Below are positions 12,442 through 23,634 of a stretch of DNA of 64,000 bases, in pieces. The notes under the pieces were generated by a model that saw only the letters and a list, made by a program, of their open reading frames with translations, was not told where the DNA came from and did not search any database. The stretch comes from an uncultured archaeon (GTDB lineage Archaea > Iainarchaeota > Iainarchaeia > Iainarchaeales > GCA-2688035). Location of the stretch: NCBI GenBank assembly GCA_964354805.1, contig CAYHBD010000010.1, positions 8,420 through 72,419 of the forward strand, given 5' to 3'. Both the position numbers and the translations under genes were made by a program. Each line of letters starts with the position of its first letter. Positions within the stretch are counted from its first letter, which is position 1.

Positions 12442-12517
12442 CTGGAATTTTGCCCGAATTATTCTTCCCCTTAATTTTTCGCAGGGGCTGTAAGGAAATG
12501 CTTACAGTTTAGTGCAG

Positions 12518-12867: not shown

Positions 12868-13314
12868 ATGCCTAAAGCACTGTTTTATATTGAGGGCAAA
12901 AACGTGCAGCATATTGGTTGCAGGCTAATTGTTACAAAACAATTAATCCACACTGGGCTCACTAAAGGCGGGGCATTCAATTTGCCTGACGGCAGGGTTG
13001 AAATTGTTTTGGAAGGGAGCGAAGACCAATTAAAAAACGCCCACAACTATATTAAAGACAATTTGATTGAATGGATAAAGCAATCAGCAAACGAAAGGGA
13101 AGAACTAAAGCGATTGATTGGAAACCCAAAGCCTGATGTCAAAATCAGTGAATTAGAGTTTAACGATTCACTGCTTGTGCTTGACATTGGGTTATTCAGC
13201 CATTCATTAACCTTTGACCAAATATACAAGGGAATAGACGTTTACAAAGATTTAACAAAATCAATCCTGCTTCTTAATCAAACACTAAAAAACAAAAACT
13301 CAGCCGGGAACTAA
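12868..13314 (+). CDS. Acylphosphatase-like protein with C-terminal extension
   Basis: GKNVQHIGCR..FNLPDGRVEIVLEG retains the catalytic R and N. Confidence 0.8.
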   Translation: MPKALFYIEGKNVQHIGCRLIVTKQLIHTGLTKGGAFNLPDGRVEIVLEGSEDQLKNAHNYIKDNLIEWIKQSANEREELKRLIGNPKPDVKISELEFNDSLLVLDIGLFSHSLTFDQIYKGIDVYKDLTKSILLLNQTLKNKNSAGN

Positions 13315-13831: not shown

Positions 13832-14197
13832 TCAGGCAATTTGTGTTTCAACCAGCTGCCTTGACCACATGAACAAAACCAAGACAACAACAAGGATTAA
13901 AATAATCCAGCCGAAAGAAAAAAAGAAGCCTACAACATCAAAGCTGGTGGCGAAGCTTTCCTGACTGGCTTGAACAACATCCTGCAGCTGTGCCTTTATG
14001 CCCGCATCCTCAATTGTTGAAAAGCTTTGCTCTGCATCAGCAATCAGCGACTGCCCTTGTGCCATGAATGAAATATTTATCAATTGGGTGAATGGCAAAA
14101 GCAGGGCAAACAAAAACAGCAGGAAAATGGAGAGCGAAACGAAAGCCATGAACAAGGAAACACTGCCCCTGCCGCCTAATTTTTTTATCTCAAACAT
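13832..14197 (-). CDS. Element membrane protein with N- and C-terminal TM; candidate virion protein
   Basis: KKLGGRG followed by a hydrophobic helix (class III-like processing site); second TM at C-terminus; GGTGTG RBS. Confidence 0.7.
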   Translation of the reverse strand: MFEIKKLGGRGSVSLFMAFVSLSIFLLFLFALLLPFTQLINISFMAQGQSLIADAEQSFSTIEDAGIKAQLQDVVQASQESFATSFDVVGFFFSFGWIILILVVVLVLFMWSRQLVETQIA

Positions 14198-14543: not shown

Positions 14544-15455
14544 TTACACTTTTAGCCGCCCTGTTGAAATCAGGGCATTTAATGCTCGCTGCAAGTTCCT
14601 TGAAACAACTTCACCACAGGAGAAATGCGCTCTAATCAAACCCACGTCAGCATAAGGCTTTCCCCTTTTATCAATGCCCGTTAAGTCTTTAATCTGCCGA
14701 ACGGCTTCCTCAAGCAATGGCTTGAAATCAATCTTTTCAATCGCCTTACCTTTCTCCCGCAGCAACTGCTCGTGCCACCTGGCAAGATTAACATCAATGT
14801 AATCAGCTTTCTTTTTCTCATAAGCGTCAACCAGCTCTTTTCTCGGCAGCGGAATAGATATTTTATCAATCCTTGAAACCTCGCCTTTCACATCCCTAAC
14901 CCTGGGCTTTGGCATATACTGTTTCCCGCTCATAGCCGAAACAGTGCTCCAGTAAAACTGTGCAAAACTGCGCTTGCTGCGAAAATCAATGCTCTCAAAC
15001 TTTGCAATGCCCGTTATGCCAACCTTGCGCACAACACTGTCAATTTGTGAAATCATGGGTGCACACATGAAAACAATAAACCCTTTTGCCCTGTAGGTTG
15101 TAACTGTGAAATTCATCCGCTTGTTTTCCTTTGTCATCGCATTCCGGGCGCTCGCTGCCTTTTCGCTGCCAGCAATTTCATCAAAAAGAATAACGCTGCC
15201 CCGCTTTAATTTTCCCTTTGAATCCCCGTTTCGCATAAGCCCAATAAAGTCTTCAACACTGAAAACAATGCGGTCGCTATTAAAGCCCGAATCCAAGTCT
15301 TGCCCAAAACGAATAGCTGCCGTGCTTTTGCCCGTGCCAGGCTTCCCAATAAACAAGAACGTGCAGTTTTGTTTTTGGCGATAAATATCCCGCCAGACCT
15401 GGCGATAAATGAAATTTCTTTTGATTTTCAACGGCATTACCTGCGTCATACTCAT
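14544..15455 (-). CDS. P-loop ATPase (Zot/B251-like; putative packaging or extrusion ATPase)
   Basis: Walker A GKPGTGKS, RIVFSVEDF, Walker B VILFDE, YRAKG..IDSVVR. Confidence 0.75.
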   Translation of the reverse strand: MSMTQVMPLKIKRNFIYRQVWRDIYRQKQNCTFLFIGKPGTGKSTAAIRFGQDLDSGFNSDRIVFSVEDFIGLMRNGDSKGKLKRGSVILFDEIAGSEKAASARNAMTKENKRMNFTVTTYRAKGFIVFMCAPMISQIDSVVRKVGITGIAKFESIDFRSKRSFAQFYWSTVSAMSGKQYMPKPRVRDVKGEVSRIDKISIPLPRKELVDAYEKKKADYIDVNLARWHEQLLREKGKAIEKIDFKPLLEEAVRQIKDLTGIDKRGKPYADVGLIRAHFSCGEVVSRNLQRALNALISTGRLKV

Positions 15456-15925
15456 TCCTCAAAATCAAAGTTTTTGCTTTTCACCGGCATCAAATTTGCT
15501 GCTCCAAACTGGGAAATGAGCAAGTCTTGAAGCTCACTCAACAAATCAAGGTATTGGTCAACCCCGTCATTAAAAAAAAACGTTTGCCCGTTTACCTGAA
15601 CCTGTTCAAGCAGCCGCAGCCGTATTTTTGCCCCGTTTATTTCCAATACATATTTTTGGTGCATTTTTGTTTTCAGTTTTGCGGACTTTGTTTTGTAGTC
15701 TTCCGTTAAAAAAGAGTTCAGCATGCTCTCAATCGTTCTGATTGCAGAATAAGCTCCTCTTGCAACCGCAACCCGCCCGTCAAACGTTTTGCGCCTCGCT
15801 TGCGAAACAGAAACCAAAAAATTATAACGGTCAAGTTCCTGCAAAACCAAGTATTGCAGGTTTGTTCGTTCATTGCGAATGTCCTCCACATTCATGCTCG
15901 CCAGAAAGCCCGTTTCCTCACTCAT
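15452..15925 (-). CDS. Hypothetical protein (element)
   Basis: ATGA-coupled to both neighbours. Confidence 0.7.
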   Translation of the reverse strand: MSEETGFLASMNVEDIRNERTNLQYLVLQELDRYNFLVSVSQARRKTFDGRVAVARGAYSAIRTIESMLNSFLTEDYKTKSAKLKTKMHQKYVLEINGAKIRLRLLEQVQVNGQTFFFNDGVDQYLDLLSELQDLLISQFGAANLMPVKSKNFDFEE

Positions 15926-16313: not shown

Positions 16314-16574
16314 TCACCTCATTGATTTTTTTTTATAAAAAAAAATTGGGCGCTTCATTACAACTCTCTGGCTTTCAAAAAAGTCACTACGCCAGCATTC
16401 AATCTTTGAAACAAAAAAACCCTGCGCCTGCAATTCCCGCAGCTCACTCTCGGTTTTAGGCACGGCCATCTCAAAGGCTGACGGGTAAACCATCTGCGGC
16501 AGGCGGCGGGATGGAGTGAGCCGCCTGCCTTTTAACTTGGAGGTTTTTTTTCCACGAATTAAAATATGTTTCAT
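16314..16574 (-). CDS. Basic hypothetical protein (element)
   Basis: MKHILIRGKK..; ATGA overlap with the upstream 59-aa ORF. Confidence 0.55.
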   Translation of the reverse strand: MKHILIRGKKTSKLKGRRLTPSRRLPQMVYPSAFEMAVPKTESELRELQAQGFFVSKIECWRSDFFESQRVVMKRPIFFYKKKSMR

Positions 16575-16750
16575 TTTGCAACCCGCCCAGCAAATTTTCC
16601 ATGTAAATAAAAAACATAAACCCCAAAAAGGAAAACAATTGCAAGCACAGCGAAAGCCAGCAGAATATTCAAAATGGAAAAAAGCAGGCCAATGCCACAG
16701 GCCGCAACAGCAAGCAGCAAGCAGGCAACAGCGAGCAAAAGTTTTTTCAT
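16571..16750 (-). CDS. 59-aa two-helix hydrophobic protein (element)
   Basis: Not in ORF track: MKKLLLAVACLLLAVAACGIGLLFSILNILLAFAVLAIVFLFGVYVFYLHGKFAGRVAK; ATGA coupling at both ends. Confidence 0.7.
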   Translation of the reverse strand: MKKLLLAVACLLLAVAACGIGLLFSILNILLAFAVLAIVFLFGVYVFYLHGKFAGRVAK

Positions 16751-16998
16751 TCAACCATCACCCACCACACGGTTGTAGAATTTGAAACTTCAATTTTAAC
16801 AAGTCCAGCGATACGCAATTCTTGCAAAGCAATTATTGTTTCGGTTTCCGAAAAACCGTTGTTTGGATTTCCATAAATCTCCCAAGCCAAAAAATGCTTA
16901 TCGCTTGGTCGCGTTTCCGCTCTATTCCAATTCGGCATTTTCACGTTTTTGGCTTTTGGCAATTCAAGAATCTTTTTCAACAAGAGTTGCTGTTGCAT
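16747..16998 (-). CDS. Small winged-helix-like protein (element)
   Basis: ETIIALQELRIAGLVKIE..TTVWW wing pattern; AGGTG RBS. Confidence 0.5.
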   Translation of the reverse strand: MQQQLLLKKILELPKAKNVKMPNWNRAETRPSDKHFLAWEIYGNPNNGFSETETIIALQELRIAGLVKIEVSNSTTVWWVMVE

Positions 16999-17317
16999 AG
17001 TGTTCACCTTCCAAAAAACTTTGTTTTGACTCTAATTTTTGGCGTTTGGCTTCAAGCCAATTTTTTAGCTCGCTTTCCAAACCCTGTAAGTATTCAGGGA
17101 CTGCGGTCATGCGCCAAATTTCTTTTGCTGCCTCAAGGTCTTGTTCAAAAATTGTTTGGCGTTTTTGTTGCCTGGTGAGAAAAGCCGCGCACTTCAAAAA
17201 CTGTTTCGTTTCCTTTTGCATTGCGCGGTCTAAAGCCAAGCGGGATTTGCCTGATATCCGAATGCCTAACTCTTTTATTAACTCACTAACCGCTGCGCTT
17301 CGCAATAACTTGCTCAT
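16964..17317 (-). CDS. Archaeal histone-fold protein with C-terminal coiled-coil extension
   Basis: Aligns by eye to HMf: AAVSELIKELG-IRISGKSRLAL..AAFLTRQQKRQTIFEQDLEAA (L1 RIS, L2 RxTIxxxD); GGAGG RBS. Confidence 0.85.
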   Translation of the reverse strand: MSKLLRSAAVSELIKELGIRISGKSRLALDRAMQKETKQFLKCAAFLTRQQKRQTIFEQDLEAAKEIWRMTAVPEYLQGLESELKNWLEAKRQKLESKQSFLEGEHYATATLVEKDS

Positions 17318-17523
17318 AAAAAAACCTCCTGAGATTCTATTACAATAGGCGCAATATCAGCCCTTTTTTTAAGCAAACCAATGGATTGGAGCGCAAAATC
17401 AGCGCGCAATGTTGAAAAGAGGCAAAACCAAGCGCGCTGCCCTATAGCAAATGGCTTTTGAACACGTTCGAAAATGCGAACCGGTTTTTTCTCATTGATT
17501 TTTGACTGCAAATCACTTTCCAT
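17314..17523 (-). CDS. Hypothetical protein (element)
   Basis: Coupled small ORF. Confidence 0.5.
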   Translation of the reverse strand: MESDLQSKINEKKPVRIFERVQKPFAIGQRAWFCLFSTLRADFALQSIGLLKKRADIAPIVIESQEVFL

Positions 17524-17818
17524 TCAAAACACCAACCTGCTGCGTTTTTTTCAAAATATATCCTGTCGCATCAAAAGGGCTATTTGGAATAAAGCAATGA
17601 GCGCACCGGTGCCCAAGCCCCCGGCCATGTTTGTGCAAACAATGGCAGAAATCGCACCAAAACTGCCAGCCGCCCAAAAAATCCTGCCTGGGTTCAACCA
17701 AAACGATTGGAATGCCGTCTTTGTGGCCTAAAATAACAGTTTTTTCAGGCATTTGCAACCACTCCCTCTCCGTTTTGTGTGGGCGGTCTGCCACTCTGGG
17801 CATTCTTACCCACGACAT
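17513..17818 (-). CDS. Small Zn-binding protein (element)
   Basis: FWCDFCHCLHKHG..HRCAHC motif. Confidence 0.6.
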   Translation of the reverse strand: MSWVRMPRVADRPHKTEREWLQMPEKTVILGHKDGIPIVLVEPRQDFLGGWQFWCDFCHCLHKHGRGLGHRCAHCFIPNSPFDATGYILKKTQQVGVLNGK

Positions 17819-19337
17819 ATTGCTCTGCCCTCTTTTTCTTCCGTTTTTTAGCCAAAACAGCCTGTTTTTCGATTGTTCCAAAATTTGTTACTCCCGATAT
17901 GCGGTGCAATTCATGCAATTCATTTTCATTTGCATGATTTGCATTAATTGCATTATTTGTATCAACTGCATGAATTGCATTAATTTCTATTTCTTCCCAT
18001 TTTGGTATTGAAAAAGTAAGAACATCTGGAAGGGGTATATAAATTGCGACATCTTTTTTGGATTCCTCAACATGGGTTTTGGTTTTTTCCAAAAAGCCAA
18101 GCTGAACCAATCGGTCAAGTGTATTTCGTAACCAGCGTTCTTCCCATCGAGAAAATCGTATATTTATGTTTTGTAGGGTTCCCCCATCTGGGAAGTATTT
18201 TATCAAAATTTCAATCAGTTCCTTTTCTTCTCTCGCAAGTGGAATCATCAAAGAATTGCTTGTTGTTTGCAATAAAGCAATTCTTGCATTTCCATAATCT
18301 TCCGGAGTAGCAAGTATTTTTCCCTGCAAATCTTTTTGTCTTTGGTGTTGGTGCAAACAGGCGCTTCCTTTAATATAATCAAGGAAGCGGGAGAAAATTG
18401 TTCGTTGAATAACCTGGCAATTCCTTGATTTTTTTATCCAGTATTCAGCTAATGCGTGGGTTATTTTTTCTGCATATGGAATAATCACTTCAATGAAATC
18501 AAGGCCGTAATAAAATCTTTTTGCCAATTCATTTTTTTCTTCTTGTTCTTGTCCTGCATCCTCACTCGCCTGTTTTAAATTTATTTGTAATGTTTGTTGT
18601 GAACTTTCATCCATGTACAAGAAAGGCAATCGCCTCAGTGCTTCATCTCCAGCTTTTACCTTTGCTGCGGTTGTGAGAAATGTTGGTTTGCCTTTAATAC
18701 TCAAATCTTTTGCTGCTCCCTCATGCACGATTGTAACTGTATTTATTTTGTTTGGGTTTGCGCTCATCAGAGTTTTGACTGATTCGGAATTTAAAATTTT
18801 GCTGTTCACATCTTCGAGATAAACAAAATAGTTATTCCAATCTCGGTTCTGATGGCGAGCCAACGCATAATCCAACGCTTTTTCGCTTACTCTTCGCCTT
18901 GCAAAAATGTTTTCCTCAGGAAAAATATTAAGCGTTTCACTTACTACAAAATCTTTTCCTGTTCCTGGGGCAGCATTAGCACAGAGGTTGCTACTTGTGC
19001 TTCTTTTATTTTTTACTTTTGCAAGACAACAAATAAGAATAATTGTTTTAATGGAATTTGTTTCGCCGACAACACTTTTTTGCACTTCGATTGTGAGGTT
19101 ATTTAAAAGTTGTGGCTGGGATAAATATGCTATTAGTTCTGGGTTGGAGTCAATTTGTATTGCCTCTTCTTTTTTTCCTTGCATTTCACGTTCCAACTCA
19201 GCGAGTTCAACAACCTCTTTTTTTACTAAAACCATTGCAATTTTGTAATCAAGCTTTACAATACTACCTTTCGGTTGTTCTCCAGTGAGTTTAGTGTAAT
19301 CTTCAAATTTCAAAATTTTGCACAGCACTTTGCTCAT
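17745..19337 (-). CDS. Replicative helicase-like AAA+ ATPase with C-terminal wHTH
   Basis: VVGE, Walker A APGTGKD, Walker B VYLED, EALRR arginine finger, ATPEDY, LDRLVQLGFL wHTH; coupled to the primase. Confidence 0.75.
   Translation of the reverse strand: MSKVLCKILKFEDYTKLTGEQPKGSIVKLDYKIAMVLVKKEVVELAELEREMQGKKEEAIQIDSNPELIAYLSQPQLLNNLTIEVQKSVVGETNSIKTIILICCLAKVKNKRSTSSNLCANAAPGTGKDFVVSETLNIFPEENIFARRRVSEKALDYALARHQNRDWNNYFVYLEDVNSKILNSESVKTLMSANPNKINTVTIVHEGAAKDLSIKGKPTFLTTAAKVKAGDEALRRLPFLYMDESSQQTLQINLKQASEDAGQEQEEKNELAKRFYYGLDFIEVIIPYAEKITHALAEYWIKKSRNCQVIQRTIFSRFLDYIKGSACLHQHQRQKDLQGKILATPEDYGNARIALLQTTSNSLMIPLAREEKELIEILIKYFPDGGTLQNINIRFSRWEERWLRNTLDRLVQLGFLEKTKTHVEESKKDVAIYIPLPDVLTFSIPKWEEIEINAIHAVDTNNAINANHANENELHELHRISGVTNFGTIEKQAVLAKKRKKKRAEQYVVGKNAQSGRPPTQNGEGVVANA
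17907..17987. repeat. Degenerate 9-bp tandem repeats inside the helicase 3' end
   Basis: tgcaattca tgcaattca .. tgcatgatt tgcattaat tgcattatt tgtatcaac tgcatgaat tgcattaat. Confidence 0.7.
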
Positions 19338-20185
19338 TTTCTCGCCTCCAGCAAACACAAATCACAAATAGAGCGCTTTCCAATCGAGCCAGCAAATTTC
19401 TGAATCTGCTTGCAATTAAATTCCGGCTTATACTGGCCCCAACACTTCAACCGAGCAACTGTTAAGTTTTCTTGTTGCTGGGTTTCAACAAGCTTTTGCA
19501 GCAAAGTTTCATTGCCTCTAAAATATGCAAAGGCGTTGGGAGAAAAGCGGCTATTCTGTTGTTTGTTGTTTAAATCAATTTTGTTGTTTAAGCCGTATTC
19601 AAAAAAAGGGCAGTGTTTTTGATTATCTATTCTCCCTGAGGGAGTCTTATACATAAATTTTTTTTCGTTCTCTTTTTTTACCGCTTCAACAATTTCCTGC
19701 GGCAAAACATTCGTTCCCTTTGCTTCTCGAATCAGTATTTTTAACCTGCCTGTTTTGCGATGTGGTGTTCCTGCAATATGCCACATCCGTTTGTTTCCAA
19801 AGTTTGCCTCATCGAAACTTTTGGAAAGTTCTTCATTCGTCAGCCATAGTGTCAGTGCTTTTTTTACCATTGGGCGAATCTCTGGCTCAATTAATTCAAG
19901 CCCCTGCCATTCCATTTCAAGATGGAAGCTTTTATTTCCGCCATCATAATATTGGTATGCAATACCTTTCATATCGAGCAGCGAGCAAACAAAATTCATG
20001 ACCTGTTTGTTTGTTTCTTTTTGTTCAAAATCTGTTTCAAGGCAAAGTTGTTCTGGCCTGATTAATTCGTAATTTGGTTCACTTTTCATTTCTTTTTTCC
20101 ATTGTTCAGGCGTTCTCCACTTGCTCCACCCATCTTTGTATTTTTTTAGGTTGCCTTCAGCAACAAGGTAAAGAAATTCACTCAT
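19334..20185 (-). CDS. AEP primase(-polymerase) with Cys-rich C-terminal domain
   Basis: LETDFE (motif I), GNKSFH (motif II), GTPHRKTG; C-terminal HCPFF..FNCKQIQ..ICDLC. Confidence 0.75.
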   Translation of the reverse strand: MSEFLYLVAEGNLKKYKDGWSKWRTPEQWKKEMKSEPNYELIRPEQLCLETDFEQKETNKQVMNFVCSLLDMKGIAYQYYDGGNKSFHLEMEWQGLELIEPEIRPMVKKALTLWLTNEELSKSFDEANFGNKRMWHIAGTPHRKTGRLKILIREAKGTNVLPQEIVEAVKKENEKKFMYKTPSGRIDNQKHCPFFEYGLNNKIDLNNKQQNSRFSPNAFAYFRGNETLLQKLVETQQQENLTVARLKCWGQYKPEFNCKQIQKFAGSIGKRSICDLCLLEARK

Positions 20186-20697: not shown

Positions 20698-20835
20698 TCA
20701 TTCGGCATTTTTTTCAGCCTCCAGCGCAGAATGGAGCAGATGCAGCAGCAAGGCCGTGCGTGTGTTGAATTGTTGTTTTTTTGCGTCAATGCGCCCAAGT
20801 AATTCAGCTGGGCAGTTGAATTGAACCAAAGGCAT
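20698..20835 (-). CDS. Ribbon-helix-helix protein (45 aa)
   Basis: Not in ORF track; AGGTGA RBS; MPLVQFNCPAELLGRIDAKKQQFNTRTALLLHLL. Confidence 0.65.
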   Translation of the reverse strand: MPLVQFNCPAELLGRIDAKKQQFNTRTALLLHLLHSALEAEKNAE

Positions 20836-20995: not shown

Positions 20996-21982
20996 ATGCC
21001 TACTACTGAAAGAAAAGAGCTGGAAGACCTTGCAAATTGCTTGGGAACACCAAAAACAAGCAGGGTTTTGCAGTTAATTGAGCTTTCAAACAATGGGCTG
21101 CTGATGCAAGACCTCTTTTCCCTGCTTAACGCACCAAAAGACAAGGGCACCCAGGATGCTTTAAAATTGCTGCAAGAAAGTGGTCTTATTGAAAAGCGAA
21201 AAGGCACAAACGTAAAAACAATCAGGGCAACATGGCAGCAAGAGCGCAACAAACTGCCTGCGCTGATCGAAATAAATATTGATGCAGGCCTGCGTTTTGG
21301 CTCGAGGTTTTTTTGCAAGCAAAACCCGGTTGCGCTTTTCTTTGAAAAAATAATAAACAAAAATGGGTTGAGCAAAGAACAGCAAGCGCTTTCTCCTTGC
21401 CTTGATGCAATTGGAAAAGAGATTGCGGCGAGATGGGAATGGCAAAAGCTGGCTGTTGATTTTAACACAGAACTACTGCCTGCTTTTGCTCAAAACTTTG
21501 AAAGCATTGGCAAAGAATTGGGAAATGCGTCTTTAAACAAAATATTAATAGCTAAAAAGGGCGCTGCAGAAGGTTTGGAAATGCTTAATCAAAAAACGAT
21601 TGAGGTAATGGAAGAAATGAAGAAGGAAAAAAAAGCAGGCCGTTTGGCTTTTGTTGCAAGCCTGAAAGAAGAAAAAACGCTTTCCACACATTTGGATTAT
21701 GTTTCACATATGCTGCAGCGCTTGCTTGTTGAAGAATTTATTCAGCACTACACCCGCTTTTATGAGTATGTTGCAAAAGAGCAAGCGCCGGCAATTGATT
21801 TGGATAAAATAAATTTTATTGTTTCCCTGCTGCAAGAGGTTGAATCACGCCTTTCAAAAAACGCCCTTGTTTTTGAGATTGTTTCCCGCTTGCAAAACTT
21901 CAACAACCTTTTAAGCGTTGCAATGGAGCAAAGGAAAACAATGGTGCTTTTGGAAAATAAGAAAGTGGCAGAAGGCAATTAG
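20996..21982 (+). CDS. Winged-helix regulator with long helical C-terminus
   Basis: LANCLGTPKTSRVLQLI..TQDALKLLQESGLIEKR; divergent from the main element operon. Confidence 0.65.
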   Translation: MPTTERKELEDLANCLGTPKTSRVLQLIELSNNGLLMQDLFSLLNAPKDKGTQDALKLLQESGLIEKRKGTNVKTIRATWQQERNKLPALIEINIDAGLRFGSRFFCKQNPVALFFEKIINKNGLSKEQQALSPCLDAIGKEIAARWEWQKLAVDFNTELLPAFAQNFESIGKELGNASLNKILIAKKGAAEGLEMLNQKTIEVMEEMKKEKKAGRLAFVASLKEEKTLSTHLDYVSHMLQRLLVEEFIQHYTRFYEYVAKEQAPAIDLDKINFIVSLLQEVESRLSKNALVFEIVSRLQNFNNLLSVAMEQRKTMVLLENKKVAEGN

Positions 21983-23280
21983 CCGTTTTCTGCCAGTATT
22001 TTTTTATTCATCCCCGTTTTCTGCGCCATTTTTACCATGAATCCCAAAACTTCTTTTTGCATTGCCGGGTTTTTGAATGCCAATTGCATTGTTTCAATCA
22101 GCAGGTTGTTTTCTTTGCTTTCTTTTGCCAGCACGTTGTCCAATCCGAGTGTTGCTCCGCATTGCTCGCAAAATCCATTGCTTTCTGTGCTGCTGCAAAT
22201 CGGGCATTCTTTTGGCATCATGCAATTGCCTGCGTTCAGTTCAAAGTATGGCTTCTCAAAGTCCACCGGCTTTATATGCGTATAATTCAGGCTAATCCTT
22301 TTGCTTTTGCTCCACCCAAACCAAGCATACTTTATATCCTCGCCCCAGCCGCTGCATCTGCTGGCCATCATGTGCCTGAAAACGCTGGTTGCCTTTCTTT
22401 CAGGCAATTCAACGCCGCCTGCTGCAAAGGCTCGCAGAACCAGCTGTCGTGCAGCAACATAGCTTAGCCTGTTGCCAAAGCGGTCAGGGAACAATGGTGC
22501 TTCTTGGTTATCGTGTTGGTAATTCTGCAGCCATTTTGTAATGTATGGCTTGCAGAGATAGCCGATAACCGTTCTCGGTTTGGTTTTTGAAACAGGAAAG
22601 TGCAGCAGCAGATAGTTTTTTCCCTCTGCCTGCTTTATGTCGCTTACGTTCATGCCAACTGCTTCGGTTATTCGGCATCCAGCATCATTCATAATTGAAA
22701 GCAGTGCCTGGTTGCGGAAATAGAGCGGGCTGTTTGCCCTGACCAGCTTTGATGCCCTTATTGTTTGCCCTTCTCTTTGTGCCTTGCTTACCAATGCGTG
22801 TTTTTCTATTATGCCCTTAATCTGTTCCTGTGTGGGCAGTTCAATTAAATCTTCTACATCAGGCCGCTTGGGCATCTCAATGTTGTCAATTGCCTCAGGG
22901 TATTTGCCCTTTTTCATGTTGAAATGGTATCGCAAAAACTTTTTTGTCAGCCAAAAGTATTTCTCTACGCTGCCCCAGCTTAATGAACCTTTATCCATTC
23001 TGTCAAGCATGGAATTGAACCAAGCTTCGTTATCTGCTGCTGTTATGGCTTCAACGTTTTGCTTGTTGTGCCACAGCAGGTAATGATAGCTCACATCCAA
23101 GTCTTTGCATTGGGTGTTAATTCTTGCACCCTTGTCTTTTGCGTTGTATCTCACAAGAGCTTGCTTGCATTCTTCGCTCAATTCGCTGTCCTGAATTTTT
23201 TGCAGCAGGCCTGCTGTTTCTTTTCGCCTATTATGAATATCAATCTCTTCTTTACCATTTGAATTAGGCTTCGCAGCCAT
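21979..23280 (-). CDS. Tyrosine recombinase/integrase with C-terminal Zn ribbon
   Basis: AGCRITE (R), SKT (K), FRH, FGWS..NY (Y); CPIC..FCEQCG; adjacent to the tRNA. Confidence 0.92.
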   Translation of the reverse strand: MAAKPNSNGKEEIDIHNRRKETAGLLQKIQDSELSEECKQALVRYNAKDKGARINTQCKDLDVSYHYLLWHNKQNVEAITAADNEAWFNSMLDRMDKGSLSWGSVEKYFWLTKKFLRYHFNMKKGKYPEAIDNIEMPKRPDVEDLIELPTQEQIKGIIEKHALVSKAQREGQTIRASKLVRANSPLYFRNQALLSIMNDAGCRITEAVGMNVSDIKQAEGKNYLLLHFPVSKTKPRTVIGYLCKPYITKWLQNYQHDNQEAPLFPDRFGNRLSYVAARQLVLRAFAAGGVELPERKATSVFRHMMASRCSGWGEDIKYAWFGWSKSKRISLNYTHIKPVDFEKPYFELNAGNCMMPKECPICSSTESNGFCEQCGATLGLDNVLAKESKENNLLIETMQLAFKNPAMQKEVLGFMVKMAQKTGMNKKILAENG

Positions 23281-23361
23281 TCGCAATCACCTCACTTTAG
23301 GGCTGCATTACTACACCGCAACCCTTAAAAAAGGCAACTGCGAATGAACTGCGAACACTGA

Positions 23362-23577
23362 CGCAGGGGCTGGGATTTGAACCCAGGCTCCCTTTCGAGA
23401 ACGAGCTCGCCGCAATTTTCGCTTGAAAAAGAAACCAATTTTCTTTTACTGAATCTTTTCTTTTTCAAAAAGAAAAGGCTTGTTTTGCAAAGCAAAACCC
23501 CTTTTCCCCAGGCTTTTTTGCGGAAGCAAAAAAGGCTGTTAGCAGGCTCGCGCGTTAAACCACTCCGCCACCCCTGC
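23362..23577 (-). tRNA. tRNA-Ser(GCT) with 132-nt intron at 37/38 (23408-23539)
   Basis: Acceptor GCAGGGG/CCCCTGC+G; CGAGC-CTGCTA|A-GCTCG; long variable arm; GGTTCAAATCC. Confidence 0.92.
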
Positions 23578-23634
23578 AGCTAGAAAATATTAACGGTGAA
23601 AACAATTAAAATTCATCGGTTGCAAAGTTTCTTT

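Follow-up and report, generated by a model that had tools for sequence, protein, structure and literature searches.

We describe a full-length histone, P0001, encoded by a small integrated element of a DPANN archaeon; by analogy with characterised tailed histones, it is probably an accessory, element-encoded DNA-bridging histone. The reading that we favour, with somewhat better than even confidence, is that P0001 assembles through its tails into a tetramer able to bind two segments of DNA, and that it acts on the element's own DNA. Histones on mobile elements and histones that tetramerise through their tails have both been published already. New here is the combination: a small integrative element from a DPANN host encodes a histone that has both a full-length fold and a putative tetramerising tail, and such a histone is coupled to a winged-helix gene in two cases. 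Bridging histones are known on archaeal chromosomes, and truncated forms are known from tailed viruses; a full-length bridging histone carried as optional cargo suggests that mobile elements organise or silence their own DNA with such histones. Bacterial plasmids, which carry H-NS homologs, offer a parallel to these element-borne histones.

The histone gene and its fold

The 64,000-nucleotide stretch of DNA analysed here (the window) belongs to a 1.38-Mb archaeal genome from the order that also contains genomes named Ca. Iainarchaeum. The P0001 gene spans positions 16964–17317 on the minus strand (117 aa), as defined by its open reading frame and profile matches. A strong ribosome site (GGAGG) lies at 17329–17325, and the start of the gene overlaps the upstream ORF by four bases (ATGA). 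Judged by its sequence, P0001 is a real gene with a full-length HMf-type histone fold. It matches the Pfam Histone profile (E = 2.2e-5; 25.2 bits, slightly below the 26.4 cut-off) and the NCBIfam archaea_histone profile (E = 2.1e-4, below the curated cut-off). The CBFD_NFYB_HMF profile (PF00808), proposed as a check in a preliminary description of this DNA, returned a weak E = 0.11 only. In a PDB sequence search the top matches are HMfA and HMfB, aligned with one single-residue gap over residues 5–70 (17108–17305, minus strand). P0001 scores 21.4 bits on a host-histone HMM from whose building it was excluded, while the best of 5000 shuffles reaches 11.2. The best ESM Atlas matches are histone clusters of 110–132 aa, including a 119-aa archaeal histone cluster at 0.92. 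The histone motifs quoted in the preliminary description are all present, and these searches agree with the fold it had proposed.

Alignment to HMfB shows which parts of the nucleosomal machinery are kept. R19, S21, R52, T54, D59, K13 and L46 are retained (R20, S22, R53, T55, D60 and L47 for R19, S21, R52, T54, D59 and L46 in P0001's own numbering), and the R53–D60 pair corresponds to the R52–D59 salt bridge of HMfB. The L1 and L2 arginines show a spacing of 33, which all 38 of the host histones compared share. The α2 helix has full nucleosomal length and α3 is complete (residues 58–71); P0001 is therefore not an α3-truncated histone. Loop L1 is one residue short and its glycine, the G16 equivalent (G18), is flanked by bulky Leu and Ile. 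The stacking pairs K30–E61, E34–R65 and R48–D14 of HMfB become R31–E62, K35–E66 and R49–E16 and are still charge-complementary. Identity to host histones is 18–33%, and the net charge of the fold is +7, against +2 for the host histone. The host genome itself encodes one nucleosomal histone, at G000:C29:37116–37340, and one short face-to-face-like histone, both on other contigs.

The surface that joins canonical dimers is altered. The replaced tetramer-interface histidine noticed earlier proves to be H49 to Q50, at a position that is His in 39 of 40 host histones. Three further changes had escaped that first reading: L62 to A63 in the same interface, and R10 to E12 and K53 to Q54 among the DNA contacts, so that of the DNA-anchoring arginines R19 is retained (R20) and R10 is gone. 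The dimer–dimer set L46/H49/D59/L62 thus reads L47/Q50/D60/A63, which departs from the nucleosomal set; all four residues are required, and the changes at H49 and L62 disrupt two of them (PMC6136690).

Predicted assembly through the C-terminal helix

The preliminary description had noted an amphipathic extension of about 50 residues. The structure model and heptad analysis assign an amphipathic helix to residues 74–104 (17006–17098, minus strand), a helical tail of about 31 aa. The remainder does not share this character: residues 105–117 have pLDDT below 50, and residues 107–117, predicted to be disordered, are encoded by a 35-nt overlap with the next gene (16964–16998, minus strand). The heptad-period hydrophobic moment of the tail is significant on a large-hydrophobic scale (p = 0.004, shuffling) and reaches p = 0.07 on the Eisenberg scale. 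Residues 71–117 carry a net charge of −3, i.e. there is no strongly acidic tail.

The AlphaFold2 monomer of P0001 has a kinked α2 and adopts an AAA+ lid-like bundle, similar to the lids of RuvBL and further AAA+ proteins (best Z 11.3, rmsd 2.6, 73 aligned). A lone chain is expected to collapse in this lid-like manner, because the histone fold is a domain-swapped form of the AAA+ lid (PMC1847821). In fold searches with this model, cellular histones were not among the top matches and viral histones appeared only at E > 0.07; as the model is collapsed, these searches are uninformative.

Modelled as four copies, P0001 (residues 1–108) scores 0.76, whereas none of three controls exceeds 0.01. In calibration, this mark was reached by 20 of the 30 proteins solved as pairs and by 1 of the 23 solved as single chains; that calibration fits only roughly, since this was a four-copy job with a custom alignment. 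The alignment did not extend over the tail. The four-copy runs share at least 92% of their contacts, with pLDDT of 86–87. An antiparallel handshake dimer is predicted, in which copies 3 and 4 are paired through contacts 29–41, 33–33/37/40 and 20/21–55/56. The dimers are predicted to meet through residues 67–104 in heptad spacing, together with residues 39, 42, 43 and 46, and a central patch (residues 80–91) touches the fourth chain; the tail contacts are those listed at an expected error under 8 Å. The inter-dimer contacts named do not include positions 47, 50 and 63, which belong to the nucleosomal interface, although this is no proof that they are free. The lowest-error contacts all fall within the dimer, and the 0.76 score therefore says little about the tail bundle. 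The score is probably dominated by the dimer in these models, and the dimer score may stem from the model's memory of solved histones. The tail bundle itself is a prediction from one sequence. With these limits, the four-copy model supports the earlier suggestion of oligomerisation through the tail and depicts handshake dimers joined via their tail helices, as in coiled-coil histones.

The integrated element and the winged-helix partner gene

The histone had been described as encoded by a mobile element, and the surrounding DNA bears this out. A tRNA-Ser(GCT) gene with a 132-nt intron (23360–23578, minus strand), recovered by ARAGORN when introns were allowed and missed by default ARAGORN and by Rfam, is the integration target. 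An 11-bp att core (23362–23372, plus strand) is formed by the final 11 nt of the tRNA, as far as the discriminator, and a second copy (12480–12490, plus strand) marks the element's far end. Between them lie 10.9 kb with 41% GC, against 44% for the genome. The att core is short and two further copies occur elsewhere in the genome; the element boundary is therefore likely, not proven. The tRNA-Ser(GCT) intron also contains a 36–45-nt palindromic repeat (23493–23537) with about 20 copies genome-wide, another of which (C7:10714–10751) lies inside the 161-nt intron of tRNA-Ser(GGA). Long tRNA introns in this genome may have grown by insertion of dispersed repeats.

An intact tyrosine integrase (21979–23286, minus strand) is followed by a divergent 328-aa protein (20996–21982, plus strand) without a family match, probably, from its sequence and position, a regulator with an N-terminal DNA-binding domain. 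A long operon then begins with a 45-aa ORF (20698–20835, minus strand), ribbon-helix-helix-like by eye only, and continues through small proteins, a primase-like protein (19334–20185, minus strand; phrog_16345, E = 4e-6; homolog in G154), an MCM-like replicative helicase (17745–19340, minus strand; weak MCM match) and two small ORFs to the histone and an 83-aa ORF. Beyond these lie small ORFs, a 157-aa protein (15452–15925, minus strand), a P-loop ATPase (14544–15455, minus strand) and a 121-aa protein with two hydrophobic segments (13832–14197, minus strand), which resembles pilins or spindle-virus coat proteins by eye and has no family match. The histone gene is thus mid-operon, between the replication and ATPase modules as first described, and nearly all operon genes overlap. 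A scan for bacterial-type promoters, in this archaeal host, stayed below shuffle level. The Asn/Ala/Ile-rich end of the helicase contains five 9-bp-spaced repeat copies (17928–17990), and the homolog in G154 finishes in similar low-complexity sequence. An acylphosphatase-like protein with a C-terminal extension (12868–13314; phrog_20167, E = 1.4e-6), which has chromosomal paralogs, is encoded at the element's far end.

The element has an integrase, direct repeats at a tRNA gene and no recognisable capsid or conjugation genes, as is the case for cryptic integrated elements. Of the major capsid and attachment proteins that define a provirus, it offers only the two-helix membrane protein without a family match; no capsid, adhesin or conjugation gene was recognised in the element. 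Similarly built elements are present in other Iainarchaeota. Small integrase/helicase/ATPase elements with exchangeable replication genes, several of them beside tRNA genes, are found across the phylum (L104, L106, L108, L034). Members of the P-loop ATPase family occur in a further 20 Iainarchaeota genomes as well as in virus-like contigs; in other elements and in one virus-like contig, the 157-aa protein is encoded next to them. Close relatives of the pair also occur in contigs that resemble virus structural modules. One metagenome contig (L035:498–11590) encodes the 157-aa/ATPase pair together with two large proteins, one of them with LamG, and a two-helix coat-like protein of 70 aa, and resembles a module of a spindle-shaped or pleomorphic virus. 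A close ATPase homolog (L105:9700–10569, in G003) stands alone among housekeeping genes, with no integrase or helicase nearby.

The 83-aa partner gene (16747–16998, minus strand), which the preliminary description did not mention, overlaps the histone 3′ end, and its ribosome site (GGTGA, 17008–17004) is located within histone codons 104–105. Its model is a winged helix (best Z about 8) at moderate confidence (pLDDT 62), consistent with a predicted winged helix-turn-helix protein. Directly after it, a 59-aa hydrophobic ORF (16571–16750, minus strand) is overlain by a longer, 146-aa ORF that is probably not the real gene.

A second locus with a tailed histone fold and a partner, G173:C81, was recognised among the weak second histone matches inspected in 215 genomes and belongs to another Iainarchaeota family. 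Its histone-like ORF (103 aa) matches PF00808 weakly (E = 0.004) and did not match the host-histone HMM. It is without the His, has the same α2 spacing as P0001 and carries a tail of about 35 residues, the heptad signal of which is not significant (p = 0.21). This ORF overlaps a homolog of the 83-aa gene (29% over 65 aa, E = 9e-8), a match that exceeds 20,000 shuffles, and the GGTGA site inside the histone's last codons is common to both genomes. Adding the G173 protein to the query changed the PDB match to HMfA from 0.015 (P0001 alone) to 0.0008, and nearly all the matches listed are histone folds. The gene directly before the G173 histone encodes a zinc finger that shares 51% identity with one from a sister element that bears an integrase; the 5-kb G173 contig itself has no integrase. 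The two histones are 23–27% identical, no closer than P0001 is to host histones, and a tree did not unite them, both element-histone branches being longer than 5 and their placement impossible. The link between the loci therefore rests on gene order and shared features. We regard G173 as a similar tailed-histone/winged-helix pair on a related element, with a weak histone match and a common origin that the tree does not support.

P0001 retrieved only itself from a search of 5.8 billion proteins and from one of 1.84 billion representatives, and likewise from viral, metagenome and genome contigs and from phage and plasmid records. A partner profile found no members beyond the two known; weaker matches were rejected, such as one in G065 that lies inside a Cdc6-like ORF on the opposite strand. 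A two-histone profile run on 215 genomes gave no further tailed member among the matches inspected, the rest matching the fold only, and no chromosomal coiled-coil histone was seen among the second histone matches inspected. Other histone genes encountered were a canonical archaeal histone on a 49-kb IMG/VR contig (L047:7992–8192) and a 123-aa doublet of two short face-to-face-like histone folds in G196 (L049:4426–4797). Both pair genes are absent from 31 sister loci with ATPase or helicase relatives (369 kb; many ended by contig ends). The pair is therefore accessory, which argues against a role in the virion.

Proposed function and comparison with known systems

In the mechanism that we propose, two P0001 chains would form an ordinary histone handshake dimer, as modelled. 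In the sequence, the His/Leu surface through which canonical dimers line up into a hypernucleosome is degraded, and two dimers are instead predicted to join via their C-terminal helices. Following the published layout of coiled-coil histones, the DNA-binding faces would sit at opposite ends of the tetramer, which could then hold two DNA duplexes or loop one, in analogy to HMfC and MJ1647. The coiled-coil histone HMfC bridges DNA in vitro (PMC11390915), as does MJ1647, a tetramer formed via its tail (PMC10516927). Gene overlap suggests that the histone is produced from the replication operon together with the winged-helix protein. The most likely target would be the element's own excised, replicating DNA, which might be organised, repressed or shielded from host histones. 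The bridging function raised in the preliminary description fits the tetramer model and these precedents; the loss of R10 and K53 fits it less well. Counting against bridging are the Glu and Gln at these positions, the intact stacking pairs and G16, the lid-like monomer model and the weak G173 histone match.

A rather unlikely alternative is that the histone tetramer and the winged-helix protein are one unit, in which the partner provides sequence specificity, so that defined element sites would be looped or repressed. The gene overlap in both genomes with GGTGA in the histone's last codons, the winged-helix fold of the partner and the weakened DNA contacts of the histone all favour such a complex, but there are only two examples, and because nearly all operon genes overlap, the coupling alone is weak evidence. 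NF-YA supplies sequence specificity to the NF-YB/C histone-fold dimer in this manner. Equally doubtful is the wider idea that DPANN integrative elements pass the two genes around as a cassette encoding a prokaryotic equivalent of the targeted histone-fold factors of NF-Y type.

Less probable again, P0001 could pair with the host nucleosomal histone, the mixed dimers stopping hypernucleosome growth on host or element DNA. The full-length α2 and α3, the 18–33% identity to host histones, the loss of H49 and L62 and the single nucleosomal histone gene of the host are compatible with this capping, but the homo-oligomer model is confident and MJ1647, the nearest analogue, forms no mixed oligomers with the canonical A3 (PMC10516927). 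Quite improbable, and poorly supported, is the virion role suggested at first, in which P0001 would compact the DNA packaged by a small virus or a satellite particle. Viral histones package DNA in other viruses (PMC11390915), contigs that also encode a two-helix coat-like protein and large LamG proteins carry close relatives of the ATPase/157-aa pair, and the element terminates in a two-helix membrane protein; against this, no capsid or adhesin gene was recognised, the 31 sister loci lack the histone (many being cut by contig ends), and the histone gene's neighbours are accessory genes on the replication side, while in G173 the zinc-finger gene immediately precedes the histone. Still more doubtful is that P0001 continues to wrap DNA, in a loose hypernucleosome to which the tail is simply appended: the equivalents of L46, D59 and G16 and three complementary stacking pairs would allow it, but H49 to Q, L62 to A, the bulky Leu/Ile at the loop glycine and the shortened L1 oppose it, and the model joins dimers by their tails. 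Scarcely credible is a non-histone, closed monomeric AAA+ lid-like domain, which might regulate the ATPase or the helicase of the element; the kinked α2 and RuvBL/AAA+ lid matches of the monomer speak for it, but every sequence and profile search returns histones, the multimer model gives the swapped handshake, and lone-chain collapse is expected of a domain-swapped lid (PMC1847821).

P0001 and its winged-helix partner are both small and expressible in E. coli, which makes bridging, the oligomeric state, any mixing with the host's histone and binding of the partner directly accessible to experiment.

Among known systems, the element resembles the cryptic integrated elements of Krupovic et al. 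(2019, PMC6563490), which combine integrase, primase and MCM-type genes in under 20 kb without recognisable virion or conjugation genes. It differs in its DPANN host and in an ATPase pair common to virus-like contigs; the word "histone" is absent from the main text of that paper. P0001 itself lies outside the nucleosomal, α3/phage, Methanococcales and RdgC histones. MJECL29 of an M. jannaschii extrachromosomal element (PMC10516927) and HMf-like viral histones (PMC13681535) are likewise encoded by archaeal mobile elements, but are canonical and tail-less; viral histones also include tail-to-tail and coiled-coil forms. Phage histones (Schwab et al. 2024) and VTTHFPs (PMC13681535) share with P0001 a mobile-element histone fold and a C-terminal tetramerising helix. 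They come from tailed viruses and are α3-truncated, whereas α2 and α3 of P0001 have full length; in α3 histones (phage, VTTHFP and face-to-face) α3 is cut to 3–4 residues and α2 is shorter by 4–5. Phage histones also lack the RxTxxxxD motif that P0001 retains. RdgC histones (Schwab et al. 2024) resemble P0001 in their coiled-coil tetramer and fixed operon partners, but are the first gene, are followed by RdgC-like and membrane proteins and occur in Bacillus and Halobacteria, whereas P0001 is mid-operon with a stand-alone 83-aa winged helix next to it. MJ1647 (Ofer et al. 2023, PMC10516927; PDB 8BDK) has a divergent fold and a tail that forms the tetramer, but this 27-aa tail comprises two short helices where P0001 has one long helix, the family is restricted to Methanococcales, and the P0001 match to MJ1647 covers the fold only.

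The coiled-coil histones, exemplified by HMfC of Methanothermus fervidus (Schwab et al. 2024, PMC11390915), have the same plan as P0001: a fold with one long C-terminal helix and a predicted tetramer of two dimers joined by these helices. They have been reported from Iainarchaeota among other phyla, and strongly acidic disordered tails are common but not universal among them, being absent in HMfC (PMC11390915). P0001 is distinguished by its location on an integrated element, its coupling to a winged-helix gene, the lack of any close relative in 5.8 billion proteins, the lack of a strongly acidic tail and the Glu at the R10-equivalent position. Likened by its modelled layout and not by sequence clustering, P0001 would work like a coiled-coil histone.
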